A stretch of 64,000 nt of DNA from Escherichia phage JEP6, in sequence record MT764206.1; one strand, 5' to 3'. This document shows, in pieces, positions 9,456-53,787 of this stretch. A program made the translations under genes and the position numbers. The notes below the pieces were generated by a model. That model was not told the DNA's origin, did no database searches, and saw nothing but the letters and a program-made list of their open reading frames with translations. How positions within the stretch are numbered: position 1 is the stretch's first letter; every line of letters starts with the position of its first letter.

Positions 9456-11633
9456 TTAGGCCGCAAGGGCCTTCATAGTTTTAGCGATTTGGGAAACTTC
9501 ATCATCACTTAAAGAGTTGCGATAACCGATGAAGTCGGAAACAATACGGAATTTCTTGGTAAACTCAGCAACCATTTTATCACTGTTTTTTGAAGCATTA
9601 TTTGATAATACATCAAAAAGATTAGTTACTGTCCAGATGTCATGACCGATGGTATCTTTTCCACCGTTGAAATATACACCCTGTAATGAACTAACCATAT
9701 TAGCGAGTCGTGTATATTCTTCAGAAACTTCATCTACACTGAAGTACTTCATCATAAAATCTAGCTCAGGATACTTGATAATTTTATCAATATATCGTTT
9801 AGCTGAACTTGAATAACCTACATACTTATCATAATCTACATCATCAAAAGCATCTACATATAAATCACGCAGAGTTTCAAAAATACATTGGCACTGACCG
9901 AGTTCTTTTACCTTTTTCTGTAAAAGCGGACGAATAACATAAAATTCATTAATGCCAATAAGATTAGCCATACGAATCAAAATATTCATAGATGGATGAC
10001 AAAGCGATGTAGTACCATCCATAGAGAAAATATCAGAACGATGCATATACGCTACATAACCAGTAATTTCATCTGCTTCTGACGTAAGTGTAAACAGTTC
10101 CTCTTTTTCCCAGCGCCCATCTTTAATTTCAAACTTAAATGCTGTAGCAGCTTTAGGACGAGGAGCTTTACTTTTTACTGCCTTTGGAATATAACTTTTA
10201 ACTAAAGCTTCAATTTCTGACAAATAATGAATGTTAACTTCATCATTTTCAAACATTGCCATAATATCAGGGAGTAAATCAATCTGTGATTCTACTTCCG
10301 GATTAATAAACAGAAGACGTTCGTTATGATGAATATTCAGAGTGTTATTAAATTCACTATCATCTAATGCACGTGCTAATCCACGAACAATATTAACACG
10401 ATTTTTAATATTATCAATAACGACATTAATTTTTGTTGTATTAATACCAAACAGACGATAACTTGATGCGACGGCTGAAGTTTCATGACTTTGCTTAATG
10501 CGTTTCAGTCGAGGGTCAAGATTTACTTCATACACAACCCCTGCATTGCATAACTTACTGTCAGGTTCAAACATGCTCTGCATCTTTTTATATGACAGAT
10601 TTTTAGTCGTGAATTTGACTGAATTACTAATCATATAATCTCGAGCAGAATACCCCATCTTCATCAATTCACGGTATGTGTGACGAGGAGATGTAGATTC
10701 TTTAAATCGTTTTACATCTTCATTAAATGCTTTCTCACTAAGCTCTTTAACACGCTCAATAATATTTTTACGGGTACGATCATCTAGTGAAAGAGCTTCA
10801 CGTGATGGAGCAATATCAAGTGAACCCATTGGAAACTTAATGTAATTCACTTCATTGCGAATGCTTAACCAGTTACGGTCTCTAATAACACCATCGATAG
10901 GATAAACGATACCGCCGTAGATAGCATACAATCCACCACGATCTGGCCAGTATCTTTCTGGATTTACGCCGTAATAATCATCAAAATCCGGAAAATAATC
11001 AATTTCGCGGTCAAGACCATTAATGATAGCCAAATCTTTGAATGGTCGCATGATATAAGAAACTTCATAAGCAAAGTTTCTAAAGTCTTTTTCTTCAACT
11101 GGAACTACGATTTCAATACCAGTTTTATCGTCTGGACCCATTTCTTTCACGAATGTAGGTTTAATTTGTGGACCATCGCCATCCATGTAAGCTACATAAC
11201 CACGAATTTCACCTTTATGATACGAAGTAATACTAAATGTATCAGTATAACTAAACGGAGATTTAGAACCTAAACCAAATCCGCCAATGAAATCGTTAGA
11301 TTCAGCTTTAGATGAACTGAAGTATGAATTATACAACCCAGGAGAATTATCATCACCCTGAATATCAAAATCACTCATACCCGGACCAAAATCTCGACAA
11401 ACAAATCGTGGGTCTAAACGTCCTGGAACTTGTATGATAAATTTTTCAGGATTTCCATTGAGAGCATGGGCATCAATCATGTTAGTAATCAATTCACGGA
11501 CTACTGCGCGAATCTTGTTTGTATACAAATCAGATGATAGAATTTTAAATACTTTAGGAGATGCTGTGATGCTAAATGCTTTTGATTTAGAACCATTACC
11601 AAGAATTGTTTCTTTTTCAGTGGTGATAATCAT
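9456..11633 (-). CDS. rIIA: rIIA protein
   Basis: 725 aa, same length as T4 rIIA. Confidence 0.85.
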
Positions 11634-11643
11634 AATTTCCTCA

Positions 11644-11847
11644 TTAATTCATATTGCGTTTAATAACTTCAGCAACTTCTAGTAGTTCATCTTTAGTTGC
11701 GGTGTCGGATTGAATTTTATCTCTAATATCCTTAAAGCGGTTTTTAAATTCTTCGGCTTCTCCCATATCGAAAAAGCGTTGAATGATTCTATATTCTCGA
11801 TGAACTGCTTTATCAAAAAGTTCTAAATTTACTCTATATGATTTCAT
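11644..11847 (-). CDS. hypothetical early protein
   Basis: 67 aa ORF downstream of gene 60. Confidence 0.5.
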
Positions 11848-11872
11848 TTCAATATCCTCATTTGCCCAATTA

Positions 11873-11902
11873 ATTATACCACATCCTTGTGGTAAAGTAA
11901 AC
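11873..11902 (-). promoter_or_regulatory. early promoter (GTTTAC / TGGTATAAT)
   Basis: -35 hexamer overlaps gene 60 stop codon; 18-nt spacing. Confidence 0.55.
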
Positions 11903-12434
11903 TACTGGCTCATCCATTCTTTACGAAGGTCAGCATTATCTCCCATGAGCATTTCAAAAAGCTCTTTCCAGTTCTCAGGAAGTTTAACAACATCATAAAC
12001 TGGGTTCTGAATCATTTCACGGTATTCAGATTTTTCCAAAGAGCCAAGTCCCTTAATATAACGGATGCTATGTTTAGGTAGAGCATCTTTGGCACTCTCA
12101 TATTCAGCGACTGTATAAAACCATTCTTGTTTTTTACCGACCTGAGCGATGATTACAGGAGTTTTGACAAAGCGAATTCTTCCTTGTTCAAACAGTTCTG
12201 GCCAATTACTAAAAAATCCGAGCAGAGAAGGATAAATAGAACCTAATCCAATAATCTCTTAATTATGAGGTATTTCAATGGATAGCCCGAAGGCTATCCA
12301 TCGTGATCTGCGTCTGTCATAATAGCGACATTCGCATAGTTCATTGAAGAGGATTTAATAGAACGACGAACATTGTTCTGCGATTTATATTTTTTCATAT
12401 CAATGCTAGAAGAATCAATTTTTACAAATTTCAT
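11902..12434 (-). CDS. 60: topoisomerase II subunit gp60, translated with a 50-nt programmed bypass
   Basis: Codons 1-46 (12297-12434) end ...IMTDADHDG at take-off GGA, then UAG; codons 47-160 (11902-12246) resume LGSIYPSLLGFFSNWPELFEQ... after landing GGA; joined product 160 aa. Confidence 0.85.
12247..12296 (-). other. untranslated 50-nt coding gap of gene 60
   Basis: Minus-strand RNA UAGCCUUCGGGCUAUCCAUUGAAAUACCUCAUAAUUAAGAGAUUAUUGGA between matched GGA codons; take-off hairpin GGAUAGCC-UUCG-GGCUAUCC. Confidence 0.85.
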
Positions 12435-13233
12435 TATACACCTCGTAGAACTTTTCATCAGGAATCCAGCCGCGTTTAAATTCATTAAATGCTCGGCCGA
12501 ATAATTTTGAATTCACAGTTATATTATTAACTGATTTCCATTTAGCAACTCCCGTTCGTTTATAATGATCGGGGTCATATTTCGTGACGTACCATTCATA
12601 TAAATTTGGTATTAATTTTACAGCCTCTGGATTTGTCGCTGATTTATTATACCATGGTTTCGCTTTTTCAAGTTCAGCTGCTTTTGCAGTAGCAGCAACA
12701 GTATTTCCAATACCAACTAATTTTTCAGCTTTAATGCGTGGATCATTAACATGAAGACGAAAAACTTCGCCTTTTTCATTTTTAAAGCATGTCATGCCTT
12801 TAATTCCAGGAAGCTTAACACCTTTATTAACACCGCACCATTCCTTTGGGTTAAATGATCCTTTAATTAATAAGGCGCATTTACCCGATTTAATACTTCT
12901 CATTAAAACTTTATCTTTCATAAAGTTTTTTGACCATTCAGATACTGCTCTTTGATGGTAAATTCTAGCAATTTCATATAATTTACTAGAACGTAAATAT
13001 TTTTCAGTGTTTAACATTCTATTCATCGCATATGCCATTTCACGATTACGATGAATTTTATATAGTAGAAAATGTGCTAAAAAGTGTTCACGAAAAGTCA
13101 GTTTCACCAAATTTTCTTTATCATCAGAACCTCCCATTGATCTTGGAAGGATATGGTGAATTTCACCCTTAAATTTAGAAACGCGGGTTTTACCCCGCAC
13201 TATTAAGTCATTATAGATTTTTTCGTAATTCAC
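12415..13233 (-). CDS. mobA: HNH homing endonuclease (MobA-like) between genes 39 and 60
   Basis: HNH motif HHILPRSMGGSDDKENLVKLTFREHFLAH; overlaps 39 end by 23 nt and 60 start by 20 nt; listed first codon is GTG so true start uncertain. Confidence 0.7.
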   Translation of the reverse strand: MNYEKIYNDLIVRGKTRVSKFKGEIHHILPRSMGGSDDKENLVKLTFREHFLAHFLLYKIHRNREMAYAMNRMLNTEKYLRSSKLYEIARIYHQRAVSEWSKNFMKDKVLMRSIKSGKCALLIKGSFNPKEWCGVNKGVKLPGIKGMTCFKNEKGEVFRLHVNDPRIKAEKLVGIGNTVAATAKAAELEKAKPWYNKSATNPEAVKLIPNLYEWYVTKYDPDHYKRTGVAKWKSVNNITVNSKLFGRAFNEFKRGWIPDEKFYEVYNEICKN

Positions 13234-14761
13234 CTACTGTTATCCATTTACCATTAATCTGTACTTCATCATTTTCATTTACAATAATTGTATCACCATT
13301 TAGTTCGAGAGTAAACCACTCACCGTCTTCTTTTTCTTCAAACGCCTTTTCACCAAGAACTAATCCAGTGATTGCGCAAATATCAAACAGTTCTTTGTTT
13401 TTAAGCATGTCAGCATATGACATACCCCAGCTATTAAGAACTTTACCGCGCAATGGATAACCACCATGAAGTTCTTTATCGCGAACATCAATAAGATATC
13501 CGATAGCAGAATCACCCTCAGTCAAGAAAAGAGTAGTGTCAGCATCTTTACCGCAAAGATTCGCTTTAATATGTTTATGAACCTTAGCTTTAGAAGCCTT
13601 TTTAGCTGCTTTAGTTTCTGCTGCTTTTTCTGCCGCCAATTTACGAGCCAAAGCAGCTTCAATAATTGGCATTAAAATTGCTTCATTATTTAAAATAGCA
13701 CGTGAAATCTTTTTAGCATCAAGCTGAATATGACTACGGATTTCACCAAATGGAGAAGTCAAACGCTCTTTAGTTTGAGAATCAAATCGCATGTTTTTCA
13801 TATCACGAACAAACATAACGATAGTCAAACATTCTTTGACACGTGCTTTAGTTACATCAATTTTGAACTTACGTTTGATTTGTGGAATAAGGTCTTCACA
13901 AATATCATCCATAACACAGTCAATGTGATGACCACCATTCTTAGTATGAATGTTATTGACGTACGTTAATTGACGAAAACCATCCGGTGAACGACCAACC
14001 GCAATAGAACAGTTTTCTTGTTCTTGAACGATGGCGTGTTCATCATATTGGCGTGCATATTTCTTAAAATTACCCTGAACCTTTTTACCATTAAAGGTAA
14101 ATTGAATATCAGGATAAACTACTGCAAGTGTCTGGAGACGATCTAGTGTAATGTCAAGATAAACTTGGGACAGCTCATTAGTTTCAAATGACATAAAATC
14201 AGGAATGAAAGTAACACGAGTTCCTTTCCATTTTCCAGGAATAGTTTCCCATGATTTATTTTCCATGCCATTTGAACAACGAACTACAATATTATTTTGA
14301 CCATCACCAGTTTCACCGACAAACATCACAGAAAAAATGTTTGTCAAACTAGAACCAACACCATTCATACCGCCGGTGACGCGTTCTTTATCATCACCGA
14401 AGTTACCACCTGCTTTTGGAATAGTCCACGCAGCAACAGGACCAGGAATTTCTTCACCGGTAGGTGTTTTAACCATCGCTTGTGGAATACCACGACCGTT
14501 ATCTTCAACTGTTACCTGATTATTTTTAATGGTAACATTAATTTTATTTGCGAATTTAAACTTAGTACGAATACCTTCATCTACTGAGTTATCGATAATT
14601 TCATCAATAAGCTTAACAAGACCAGGTACATACTGAACACTTTCCCATTTACCAAACAGAAAGCGCTCATGCATTTCATTAGCAGAAGAGCCAATGTACA
14701 TGCCGCTACGCTTTTTGATATGTTCAATATCGCTCAGAATTTTAATTTCATTCTTAATCAT
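13211..14761 (-). CDS. 39: DNA topoisomerase II large subunit, ATPase part (GyrB-like)
   Basis: Start taken at second Met (MIKNEIKILSD), about 516 aa; GHKL ATPase motifs VEDNGRGIP and GMNGVGSS. Confidence 0.9.
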   Translation of the reverse strand: MIKNEIKILSDIEHIKKRSGMYIGSSANEMHERFLFGKWESVQYVPGLVKLIDEIIDNSVDEGIRTKFKFANKINVTIKNNQVTVEDNGRGIPQAMVKTPTGEEIPGPVAAWTIPKAGGNFGDDKERVTGGMNGVGSSLTNIFSVMFVGETGDGQNNIVVRCSNGMENKSWETIPGKWKGTRVTFIPDFMSFETNELSQVYLDITLDRLQTLAVVYPDIQFTFNGKKVQGNFKKYARQYDEHAIVQEQENCSIAVGRSPDGFRQLTYVNNIHTKNGGHHIDCVMDDICEDLIPQIKRKFKIDVTKARVKECLTIVMFVRDMKNMRFDSQTKERLTSPFGEIRSHIQLDAKKISRAILNNEAILMPIIEAALARKLAAEKAAETKAAKKASKAKVHKHIKANLCGKDADTTLFLTEGDSAIGYLIDVRDKELHGGYPLRGKVLNSWGMSYADMLKNKELFDICAITGLVLGEKAFEEKEDGEWFTLELNGDTIIVNENDEVQINGKWITVGELRKNL

Positions 14762-28148: not shown

Positions 28149-28775
28149 TTAACCTCTATTCATAAAAGCATTAAAAATTTGGTCATCAATAGAAACATTT
28201 ACTTTAGACTGTTTTTCGGATGGTAATTCATATCCACATATTACAATTTTGTGATCAATATCAAAATACACAGAAGCAATATGATTAATGCTGTTTTCAG
28301 TAAAGTCTAAATCAACATCAATATCTTTTTGACCAAAGCCCAAAGGATAAATAATGCGAGTAATTCGATTATCTTTAACAAAGATTCCACCGACATACTC
28401 TGTACTGCGTTTAAAGTCTACACGCCGACGAAATGAAAAATATTCAGGCTCTTTATGAGCTCGGCTTATAGGGCACAACGAATAACTAGAATAAGAGATG
28501 TCAAATCCTACGCCTTCAATATGAACTAAATTGTCATGATTAAACCAATTATAATCATATGCCAAGTCCATTAGATTGTCATATGTGAAAGGCACCGGAT
28601 TAACATCATTGGTCACAAGCATATAATTAGCAACTGCTATAATTTCATTATTTTTAACGAATACAAACCGTGATTGATGCGAATGGCCTGGACCTGCGTT
28701 TTCACGATTAATGATATAACACTGGGCACCTTTATATTTGTACGTGTCTTTACACTTGTGCATTTGATAAAGCAT
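28149..28775 (-). CDS. 61.2-position protein (possible AdfA-like anti-DarT factor)
   Basis: 208 aa; assignment by position only. Confidence 0.4.
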   Translation of the reverse strand: MLYQMHKCKDTYKYKGAQCYIINRENAGPGHSHQSRFVFVKNNEIIAVANYMLVTNDVNPVPFTYDNLMDLAYDYNWFNHDNLVHIEGVGFDISYSSYSLCPISRAHKEPEYFSFRRRVDFKRSTEYVGGIFVKDNRITRIIYPLGFGQKDIDVDLDFTENSINHIASVYFDIDHKIVICGYELPSEKQSKVNVSIDDQIFNAFMNRG

Positions 28776-50457: not shown

Positions 50458-50928
50458 TTAATCATGTTTCCACACCCCATCGGTATTTGACCAAAGTCGC
50501 TGATTATCTGATCCTCGCCACAACTTTTTAGTCGGAAGATTTTTCTCATACTTCCCATCAATAATAACATCAACATATTTAAGCATTTCTAGTTGTTTAA
50601 TATCTTCAAACTTATATCCTGTCCACAACCAAATGCTTTTATTGGGATAAAGATTTTTAATAGTTTGAACCACAGAGTGAATCACGTCTCTGTTATCAGG
50701 ATAAAGAGGGTCACCTCCAGTTATAGTCAATCCTTCTATATAATCATTATTCAAACATTCAATTAATTGCTCTAGTGTTTCACCAGTGAATGGAATACCA
50801 TTTCTAGCATTCCATGTTGATTTATTATAACACCCTTCGCATTTATGCAAACATCCAGTAACAAAAAGAACGGTCCTGCACCCAGGACCATTAACAAAAT
50901 CGCAAGGATAAAATCTATCATAATTCAT
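50458..50928 (-). CDS. nrdG: anaerobic RNR activase (radical SAM)
   Basis: 156 aa; CxxxCxxC-type cluster CLHKCEGCYN. Confidence 0.85.
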   Translation of the reverse strand: MNYDRFYPCDFVNGPGCRTVLFVTGCLHKCEGCYNKSTWNARNGIPFTGETLEQLIECLNNDYIEGLTITGGDPLYPDNRDVIHSVVQTIKNLYPNKSIWLWTGYKFEDIKQLEMLKYVDVIIDGKYEKNLPTKKLWRGSDNQRLWSNTDGVWKHD

Positions 50929-52206
50929 TGGTGTTTAACCCTATGCATGATTTCTTTATTTTTACCGAGATTAAATCCGCGTTCGTTCGGATTTCCCAAA
51001 TAACCACATGTTCTTCTTATTGTGTTCATCTTTTTAGGATCAGTTTCTCCACAAATAGAACAAACAAATCCGTTTTCAGTAGGAGTCATTTCATGGGTGC
51101 TTCCGCATGTAAAACATTTATCTACTGGCATATTAACACCAAAATAATCTAAATGTTGTGCAGCATAATCCCATACGGCCTCAAGACCTTTTAAGTTATT
51201 TTTCATATCAGGAAGTTCAACATAAGAAATGTGACCACCTGTCGCAATGAAATGATATGGCGCTTCACGAGAAATCTTTTCAAACGGAGTAATATTTTCT
51301 TCTACTGAAACATGGAAACTATTAGTGTACCAACCTTTATCGGTAACATCTTTTACGCTTCCATATTTTTCTGTATCAAGTTTACAGAAGCGATAACAAA
51401 GGTTTTCAGCAGGAGTCGAATATAAACTAAAAGCAAATCCGGTTCTTTCAGTCCACTGTTTAAGATGGGCATTCATTTTAGTTAAAATTTCCTGTCCAAT
51501 ATCACGACCGACAAGAATATTCAATTCATGAATACCAATGTATCCTAAAGACACTGAACTTCTACCGTTTTTAAATAACTCAATTATGTCGTCATCAGGT
51601 TTAAGACGAACCCCAAATGCACCTTCTTGGTAAAGAATAGGAGCAACAGTCGCTTTAACTCCTTTTAAGGAACTAATTCTACACATCAAAGCTTCAAAAC
51701 ACAAATCCATTCGTTCATTGAATAATTCAACAAATTTCTGTTCATTGAACTGTGTTCCAATATAAGAATCTAACGCGATGCGAGGAAGATTCAATGTTAC
51801 AACACCAAGATTATTACGTCCATCAAGAATTTCATTGCCAGTCGAATCTTTCCATACGCTCAAGAAACTACGGCAACCCATTGGAGAAACAGGAACAGAT
51901 GAACCAGTGATAGCTTTATTATTCTTAGCTGAAATAATATCAGGATACATCCTTTTGCTTGCGCACTCTAGAGCAAGCTGCTTAATATCATAGTTCGGAT
52001 CGTCTTTGTAAAGATTAACACCTTCTTCAACAAACATAACAAGCTTAGGGAAAATAGGAGTTATCCCATCACGACCAAGACCTTTAATACGATTTTTCAG
52101 AATTGCTTTCTGAATCATTCGTTCAGTCCAGTCAGTTCCCGTACCAAATGTAATTGTTACAAAAGGCGTTTGTCCGTTTGAACTAAAGAGAGTATTTACT
52201 TCATCA
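50925..52206 (-). CDS. nrdD: anaerobic ribonucleotide reductase, exon 2
   Basis: Continues ...EVNTLFSSNGQTPFV... to C-terminal zinc ribbon and glycyl-radical region; joined with exon 1 gives 605 aa. Confidence 0.8.
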
Positions 52207-53249
52207 TTATATTCAGCATGAGTCGCAAATTCATGCCCGTTTATATGAAACAACAAAATTTGGATAGTCCATAGATATGCAACGTTCTTTTATAGTGCTA
52301 GGATGAAAATTTAGCGCTTTAGCTGCTTCTATATAAGACGTATACTTAATACCGTCAACAACCACATATTCAGGAACTTTATGAATAGTAGTCTTAATAC
52401 TCAAAACAAGAGGATGAGTTTCGACTTCACTTTCAGTGCAATTTAAATATTCCGCTGCTTTTTTAAAACTTCTAAAAGTTTTATTTTTAAGCTTTATCGA
52501 TACTTGTTTTTTACTTTTTCGACTATTGATATTATTTTGCACATGTTCCTTAGATCTTCCGTTTTTAGCATAATATTCAGCTACAGAAGATTTTATATTG
52601 TTTTTATGAGATTCGGATAACACTTTACCCTTATGAGCATCTCTTAATTTTTGAATATGTTCTTCAGTATCCGGATGCTTATAAAACTTTTTACCGCCTA
52701 TGGATTTATTTAAACATTTTTTGCTATAAAAATATTTACGTATGACCTCTTCTTCATGTTTTAATGCATCTTTATAACTATCAAATGTTTTTAAAATTAT
52801 CCATTTAGTAGGTGTATCAGTTTTTAAGCGTTCATTTATATACTTAGATGACGTTGTGTAAGTTTTCCAGTTTGTGGGCTTGTTTTTAATTGTTCTAAAT
52901 TTTTTATAACCGATATAAATGTCGCCATTAGAAAACTTAACTAAGTATGTAAATGCGTCTTTATCTTTTATTTTAGTACAACGTCTTTTTATCCATTTCA
53001 TTGTTTCACCTCGTATTCATAAGATAATCTTATTTATACAAGATGACTGCTGCATGTCGCCATGCAGATTAGACTATATCTTCATCTTTCGATGCCGGCC
53101 GTTTCGAATAGCATTAGCTTCTATTCTACACCGCTACATTCATCACGGTTAGTCGTTAGGCATTTAGTTCAAAAGAACATTTAGCACGGGATTGTCTACT
53201 AGAGAGGTTCCCCGTTTAGACCGGTTTTACATGAGCCTGAATTAAATTA
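52207..53249 (-). mobile_element. group I intron in nrdD (approx. 1043 nt), boundaries inferred
   Basis: Exon 1 frame stops at 53242; exon 2 frame open from about 52206; intervening 5' core (GACAAUCCCGUGCUAAAU...) plus GIY-YIG ORF; junction after exon U 53250 / intron G 52207 restores QAYE-Y-EVN. Confidence 0.7.
52231..53001 (-). CDS. intron-encoded GIY-YIG homing endonuclease (I-TevII-like)
   Basis: 256 aa; N-terminal YLVKFSNGDIYIGY; SD GAGGTG; entirely inside nrdD intron. Confidence 0.75.
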   Translation of the reverse strand: MKWIKRRCTKIKDKDAFTYLVKFSNGDIYIGYKKFRTIKNKPTNWKTYTTSSKYINERLKTDTPTKWIILKTFDSYKDALKHEEEVIRKYFYSKKCLNKSIGGKKFYKHPDTEEHIQKLRDAHKGKVLSESHKNNIKSSVAEYYAKNGRSKEHVQNNINSRKSKKQVSIKLKNKTFRSFKKAAEYLNCTESEVETHPLVLSIKTTIHKVPEYVVVDGIKYTSYIEAAKALNFHPSTIKERCISMDYPNFVVSYKRA

Positions 53250-53787
53250 ACTCATACGCCTGAAACGCGTCGTATACGTCTTTTTCTGTTTTAGATTGGG
53301 CATAATTCAACGCATCAGCGATTTGCCATTTTTCTGCATCCTCAATATGTTTTGCATAGGTGCGTTTAACATATGGAGAAAGTACTTTATCTACATTCGC
53401 AAAAGTCGTTCCGCCATATTGATGAGAAGCAACCTGTGCAGTAATTTGTGCCATAATTGCAGTAGCAACGCCGATTGATTTAGGAGTTTCAATCTGCGCA
53501 TTACCGAGCTTAAATCCGTTTTCAAGCATTCCTTTTAAATCTACTAAACAGCAATTAGTAAATGGAAGAGCAGGGGAATAATCAATATCATGGAAATGGA
53601 TAATTCCGCTTTCATGCGCTTTCATAATAAAAGACGGGACCATATTTTTGGCAATGTGTTTAGACACAATACCAGCCATAAGGTCCCGTTGAGTTGGAAA
53701 AACACGAGAATCTTTATTAGCATTCTCGTTTAAAAGGTCTTTATTAGTTTTATGAATCAATCCTTCAATTTCTTTTTCAATTGTCAT
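53250..53787 (-). CDS. nrdD: anaerobic ribonucleotide reductase, exon 1
   Basis: MTIEKEIEGLIHKTNKDLL... through ...DAFQAYE. Confidence 0.8.

Follow-up and report, generated by a model that had tools for sequence, protein, structure and literature searches.

The window analysed here is a 64,000-nucleotide stretch of the genome of Escherichia phage JEP6 (MT764206.1), a distinct mosaic Tequatrovirus whose best record matches over 25 kb reach 96–97% identity, with none above ~97%. Gene 60 has the same neighbours as in T4, in the order rIIA, rIIA.1, gene 60, mobA, and gene 39 (Table 1), and the 651 nt around the gene 60 site have matches in 498 phage records, the best being those in Escherichia phage ELT1 (99.1%), Salmonella phage pSe_SNUABM_01 (98.6%), and T4 (98.0%). 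The ATPase and transducer part of the topoisomerase, gene 39, carries the Pfam domains HATPase_c and DNA_gyraseB. Elsewhere in the window, in the gene 61 neighbourhood, a 208-aa ORF (28149–28775, minus strand) is a full-length Pfam match to the counter-defence protein AdfA (Anti-DarT factor A; E = 4.8e-137). ARAGORN found no tRNAs in the whole window.

Table 1. Features at and around gene 60 of JEP6, in window coordinates.
Feature	Position	Strand	Description
rIIA	9456-11633		725 aa
rIIA.1	11644-11847		Pfam T4_RIIA1
Gene 60, including the 50-nt gap	11902..12434	(-)	Topoisomerase II subunit, C-terminal part of the ancestral large subunit; joined product 160 aa
ORF2 of gene 60	11902..12246	(-)	114 codons + stop; ancestral topoisomerase C-terminal part
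Landing codon GGA	12247..12249	(-)	Decoding would resume at UUA, 12246-12244
Untranslated coding gap, 50 nt	12247..12296	(-)	UAG to landing GGA; homologous to the T4 misc_feature
GAG mini Shine-Dalgarno	12256..12258	(-)	Gap nt 39-41; 6 nt 5' of the landing codon
Take-off / extended stem-loop	12275..12302	(-)	28 nt, 12 bp, UUCG tetraloop; the inner 8 bp are the hairpin of the sequence-only reading
UAG directly after take-off	12294..12296	(-)
Take-off codon GGA (Gly46)	12297..12299	(-)
ORF1 of gene 60	12297..12434	(-)	46 codons; N-terminal extension supplied by the MobA element
5' stem-loop	12311..12338	(-)	Predicted UGCG..GUCGC-UAUUAU-GACAG..CGCA; 5-bp top + 4-bp base
mobA	12415..13233	(-)	Intact 272-aa HNH-type homing endonuclease
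Gene 39	13211..14761	(-)	N-terminal part of the split topoisomerase large subunit (ATPase + transducer domains); element-derived C-terminal extension

Gene 60 itself is divided between two ORFs. ORF1, which translates as MKFVKIDSSSIDMKKYKSQNNVRRSIKSSSMNYANVAIMTDADHDG and includes the Toprim-like sequence AIMTDADHDG, begins at ATG 12434–12432 with GAGG 7 nt upstream and terminates with a GGA codon followed directly by UAG. A second GGA lies 50 nt further on, a distance that excludes the take-off codon and includes the landing codon, so that 47 nt separate the two GGAs. The 114 sense codons of ORF2, quoted from the landing site as LGSIYPSLLGFF...KEWMSQ and also as LGSIYPSLLGFFSNWPELFEQGRIRF...KEWMSQ, run from there to a stop at 11904–11902. 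An earlier, sequence-only reading of this DNA had placed the UAG, the two GGAs, and the 50-nt spacing exactly here, and all of these coordinates hold on the minus strand; translation likewise bears out its count of 46 + 114 = 160 codons and its placing of a nascent-peptide signal ahead of take-off. It had also anticipated that an ORF caller would report a 63-aa fragment. The ORF list at the locus indeed contains a 63-aa ORF (12294–12485), which starts from an upstream in-frame ATG, and only a 45-aa TTG ORF downstream, and relatives such as ELT1, G50, and ESh36 are annotated with two or more CDSs. The true start of gene 60 is ATG 12434, as in T4, and not the ATG of the 63-aa ORF.

Joined without the gap, the two ORFs encode a continuous topoisomerase subunit of 160 aa (46 + 114; ~18.6 kDa), whose junction peptide, ...AIMTDADHDGLGSIYPSLLGFFSNWPELFEQGR, spans DADHDG|LGSIYP. 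Residues 1–160 of the joined protein align to chain C of PDB 8yo3, the T4 topoisomerase II gp39–gp60 structure, with 158/160 identities and no break at the junction, and residues 27–160 align as one stretch across DADHDG|LGSIYP with the unsplit 611-aa phage topoisomerase of PDB 8ylu. A single tblastn piece likewise spans the junction in ~1,600 phage genomes in which the gene is uninterrupted. The PHROG family phrog_7229 (DNA topoisomerase II) covers residues 1–160 (E = 4.5e-81). Pfam recognizes TOPRIM_C in the joined protein (E = 6.1e-08) and gives no match that spans the junction, the continuity being shown instead by the PDB and PHROG alignments. The topoisomerase homology that had been claimed for the 114 downstream codons is thus borne out by alignment. 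For the N-terminal part, residues 1–46 match PDB 5np6_C (E = 2.8e-22), the 46-aa nascent chain in the structure of the T4 take-off ribosome.

How the two ORFs could be connected is constrained by the gap, which contains one stop in each frame: UAG at nt 1–3 in the zero frame, UGA at nt 20–22 in the +1 frame, and UAA at nt 36–38 in the landing frame. Because the gap is closed in all three frames, only a hop can join ORF1 to ORF2. Frame analysis rejected three conventional routes. Readthrough and +1 or -1 frameshifting fail because every frame meets a stop inside the gap, and reinitiation at the mini Shine-Dalgarno fails because the landing frame before the resume codon UUA is open only for GAG-AUU-AUU-GGA and has no AUG, GUG, or UUG; the UUG that does occur near the landing site is in the wrong frame and meets a UAG two codons on.

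The same frame analysis bears on a first alternative, namely that gene 60 is simply broken and yields either the 46-aa peptide alone or, by independent initiation, a separate C-terminal product, the ORFs being fragments of annotation grade. ORF callers and many GenBank records do show two or three pieces, as in ELT1, G50, and ESh36, and a mini Shine-Dalgarno GAG sits just upstream of the landing site. However, the four open codons that follow the UAA offer no start codon, and ORF2 differs from its T4 counterpart by 7 synonymous and 0 nonsynonymous changes, as expected of a translated frame under purifying selection. Moreover, the residues flanking the junction form a single Toprim/TOPRIM_C unit in solved structures, and all bypass elements are conserved in 40 records. 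A broken gene is, accordingly, very improbable, and the evidence favors a single product made by bypassing.

A second alternative is that the transcript loses the 50 nt, either as a small intron or through other processing, and that ribosomes then read the mRNA conventionally. It gains some interest from a genuine RNA-level interruption in the same window. The nrdD gene (50925–53787, minus strand) is split into an N-terminal part (53242–53787; NRDD profile 1–141) and a C-terminal part (50925–52256; profile 145–562) by a group I intron that has a full-length Intron_gpI core (53050–53285, minus strand; 70.9 bits, E = 1.3e-17) and a 256-aa GIY-YIG/NUMOD1 endonuclease ORF (52231–53001), the same layout as the T4 nrdD (sunY) intron with I-TevII. 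At gene 60, in contrast, a sensitive Rfam scan of 11800–13400 returned nothing at E <= 1, the group I core (Intron_gpI) included, and the recovery of the nrdD intron with the same settings serves as an internal control, which argues against removal at the RNA level. A scan of the whole window at the gathering threshold reported no families, although the nrdD intron, at 70.9 bits, exceeds the gathering score of 50; the fast filters had lost a true hit, the negatives of that scan are untrustworthy, and the sensitive local scan alone was used here. To our knowledge, self-splicing intron cores are all far longer than 50 nt. In T4, where 48/50 gap nucleotides are identical, the gap is retained in the mature mRNA, stalled ribosomes have been imaged (PDB 5np6; PMC5462505), and full-length protein is made by ribosomes that skip the gap (PMC5462505; PMC5009743; PMC6551183). 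RNA-level removal is therefore even less probable than a broken gene, and a ribosomal hop over a retained gap is again the preferred reading. The two interruptions nevertheless have something in common. A group I intron with its homing endonuclease is, like the gene 60 insertion, a mobile, endonuclease-associated interruption of an essential gene of nucleotide or DNA metabolism that is tolerated because it is repaired at expression; the difference is that the intron is spliced from RNA and has a 250-nt catalytic core, whereas the gap of gene 60 is 50 nt long, bears no intron signature, and would be skipped by the ribosome.

All of the sequence-defined elements of the bypass, as established by experiment in T4 and by comparative analysis (PMC5462505; bioRxiv 10.1101/2022.08.31.505936; PMC5009743; PMC6551183; bioRxiv 10.1101/2024.12.09.627546), were found at JEP6 gene 60. 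The take-off and landing codons are a matched GGA/GGA pair (12299–12297 and 12249–12247). The hairpin that the sequence-only reading had drawn around the take-off GGA, GGAUAGCC-UUCG-GGCUAUCC, is perfect and is capped by CC-UUCG-GG, and the stem in fact extends to 12 bp; the extended structure has a predicted folding energy of -19.1 kcal/mol (z = -6.6), and 0/200 shuffled sequences fold equally well. As in T4, the stem sequesters a cognate GGG at gap nt 9–11. Upstream, the predicted 5' stem-loop ends 9 nt before the take-off codon and has the geometry described in PMC5009743 and bioRxiv 10.1101/2024.12.09.627546; the T4 sequence is identical across gene 60 nt 61–138. The nascent-peptide signal, KKYKSQNNVRRSIKSSS, comprises residues 14–30 of ORF1 and has an intact KKYK, with L in T4 at position 18, and the residues Y16, Q19, V22, R24, S28, Y33, M39, T40, and H44, known from contacts or mutagenesis (PMC5462505; bioRxiv 10.1101/2022.08.31.505936), are all kept. 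On the landing side, a mini Shine-Dalgarno is defined as GAG, GGG, GGA, or AGG in an AU-rich setting 5–7 nt 5' of the landing codon (bioRxiv 10.1101/2022.08.31.505936; PMC5009743), and the JEP6 GAG lies in a segment (gap nt 22–47) that is 81% A+U.

A 71-nt megablast of GenBank phages located the gap in 40/50,697 records, with every bypass element conserved across the 40, and an exact-pattern scan of IMG/VR for the gap, its two variable positions made degenerate, returned no contigs. The 71-nt bypass region of JEP6, including both of its gap substitutions relative to T4, is 100% identical in HY01, PEC04, pSe_SNUABM_01, and ELT1; V11I and L18S are common to pSe_SNUABM_01, and HY03 encodes an identical 160-aa gp60. 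The idea that errors of sequencing or assembly created the interruption in the window is effectively refuted by this recurrence of one 71-nt region in four independently sequenced phages, with close variants in 40 records. The JEP6 cassette itself does not differ from the clade 1 MobA/bypass cassettes of Manning & Atkins (bioRxiv 10.1101/2022.08.31.505936), for which phage HY01 is the illustrated example; only the surrounding genome is a different mosaic. In Salmonella phage GRNsp7 (ON720975.1) the gap measures 51 nt: an extra T follows AAGAGA, and the mini Shine-Dalgarno thereby stands 7 nt from the landing codon. This could reflect natural variation in length or a sequencing error in a homopolymer, and a hop would still restore the frame, which is set by the landing GGA.

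Annotation has largely missed this feature. Gene 60 is split into two or three separate CDSs in ELT1, pSe_SNUABM_01, G50, ESh36, GRNsp7, Lv5cm, F26, and 215Ecol030PP, and the pieces are labelled "frameshift" in G50 and elsewhere also "hypothetical protein." Among the relatives compared, e11/2 included, a joined CDS or bypass feature appears only in T4-derived records and in HY01, whose record carries the annotation "putative non-coding translational bypass region." Most GenBank relatives thus misannotate gene 60, and annotation pipelines should join the CDS.

The endonuclease ORF that lies between genes 39 and 60 is MobA. It belongs to the homing endonuclease family phrog_655 (E = 2.5e-57), its Pfam HNH score of 20.1 bits falls just below the 21.4 cut-off, and several records, ELT1 and T4T among them, label its equivalent a homing endonuclease. 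Its overlaps with both neighbours are out of frame and measure 23 nt (gene 39) and 20 nt (gene 60). The published cassette consists of a gene 39 C-terminal extension, a MobA of 269–279 aa that overlaps its neighbours out of frame, a 46-aa N-terminal extension, and the gap (bioRxiv 10.1101/2022.08.31.505936). The JEP6 locus fits this architecture, its genes 39 and 60 being separated, at the Toprim DxDxD region of Topo2L, by an HNH-family ORF of ~270 aa. MobA is intact at 272 aa in JEP6 and ELT1, unlike in the T4 reference (NC_000866), where 11 extra single bases, mostly G, break it into "mobA" (37 aa) and "60.1." The broken T4 gene could reflect pseudogenization in lab T4, the explanation given in bioRxiv 10.1101/2022.08.31.505936, or legacy sequencing errors. 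According to the secondary accounts of Bonocora et al. 2011 in bioRxiv 10.1101/2022.08.31.505936 and PMC5009743, MobA cleaves gap-less topoisomerase alleles, as seen in T4 versus T2. On these accounts, the gap has probably been kept because, by breaking up the MobA target site, it shields the carrier genome from its own nuclease.

We put the probability at roughly 96% that the JEP6 locus is a T4-type gene 60 programmed translational bypass, residing on a MobA cassette that split the ancestral gene for the topoisomerase II large subunit into genes 39 and 60. The mechanism of bypassing is established in T4 (PMC5462505; PMC5009743; PMC6551183; bioRxiv 10.1101/2024.12.09.627546), and we infer it for JEP6 from near-identity. 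Specifically, ribosomes would initiate at AUG 12434 and translate 46 codons, while the nascent chain, through KKYK...SSS and the residues downstream, would anchor in the exit tunnel and slow the ribosome. Once peptidyl-tRNA-Gly sits on GGA in the P site and UAG occupies the A site, a small UUCG-capped stem-loop would form in the latter and codon–anticodon pairing at the take-off GGA would break. EF-G would then trigger pseudotranslocation, and the hyper-rotated ribosome, keeping its peptidyl-tRNA-Gly, would slide along the mRNA without decoding, with directionality arising as the 5' and extended stem-loops refold behind it. The anticodon of the retained peptidyl-tRNA would scan the AU-rich 3' part of the gap and re-pair at the second GGA with help from the GAG mini Shine-Dalgarno that precedes it by 6 nt, and decoding would restart at UUA to yield the 160-aa gp60.

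Gene 60 bypassing is a classic extreme case of programmed recoding, and the T4 system is reportedly that of Huang et al. 1988 and Weiss et al. 1990. Its bypass occupies positions 2803–2852 of NC_000866.4 and is represented by the structures PDB 5np6 and 8yo3; the reference record joins the gene 60 CDS from 2 pieces and marks the homologous 50 nt with a misc_feature, "non-coding translational bypass region in mRNA." The JEP6 locus is orthologous, with the same gene order and 98% nucleotide identity in gene 60, which supports the earlier proposal of a T4-like hopping architecture. An alignment with T4 gene 60, the check suggested at that time, shows 48/50 gap nucleotides and 158/160 residues to be identical. 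The two phages share the GGA/GGA pair, the UAG after take-off, the UUCG-capped stem-loop, a 5' stem-loop that is identical base for base, the GAG mini Shine-Dalgarno 6 nt before landing, and the UUA resume codon. The JEP6 bypass is therefore an already known and annotated feature (T4, HY01), catalogued in clade 1 of Manning & Atkins, in a new isolate. The hop is recognizable from raw sequence alone, the window brings no new biology, and what it adds, as judged from sequence comparison, is minor natural variation relative to lab T4 in accessory elements.

That variation amounts to 11/533 positions of gene 60 that differ from T4. In the nascent peptide, JEP6 has V11I and L18S, the latter adjoining KKYK; a literature search that included PMC5462505 yielded no mutagenesis data for T4 residue L18. 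In the gap, U17C (window 12280, U>C) turns a G.U pair into G-C, and A20U (window 12277, A>U) turns a G/A mismatch into G.U and removes the second in-frame UAG that T4 has at gap nt 19–21. Together, these two substitutions give an uninterrupted 12-bp stem, with a predicted -19.1 kcal/mol in JEP6 versus -14.7 in T4, and an intermediate that has C17 only, as in G50, F26, and 215Ecol030PP, is predicted at -17.0 kcal/mol. The stronger stem-loop base would plausibly be neutral or mildly favorable. Three silent changes 3' of the landing site (window 12195, 12187, and 12180, common to ELT1) disrupt a C-G pair and make the structure predicted there (window 12160–12250, minus strand) weaker than in T4, at -11.0 versus -16.7 kcal/mol; this region is the "forward slippage barrier" of T4 and is poorly conserved (bioRxiv 10.1101/2022.08.31.505936). 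No change between JEP6 and T4 hits a residue or base reported as essential in PMC5462505, bioRxiv 10.1101/2022.08.31.505936, or PMC5009743. Even so, V11I, L18S, U17C, and A20U lie in functional elements and the 3' structure is weaker, so efficiency could differ from that of T4. We consider it possible, though on balance doubtful, that the JEP6 haplotype, with its 12-bp stem, lost second UAG, L18S, and weaker 3' barrier, bypasses with an efficiency or landing fidelity measurably unlike those of lab T4. If this is the case, then the haplotype would be a ready-made natural test of the model in which the extended stem-loop acts as a forward driver. More generally, the few natural variants at the stem-loop base, at residue 18, and in the 3' structure could serve as biologically validated variants in mechanistic assays.
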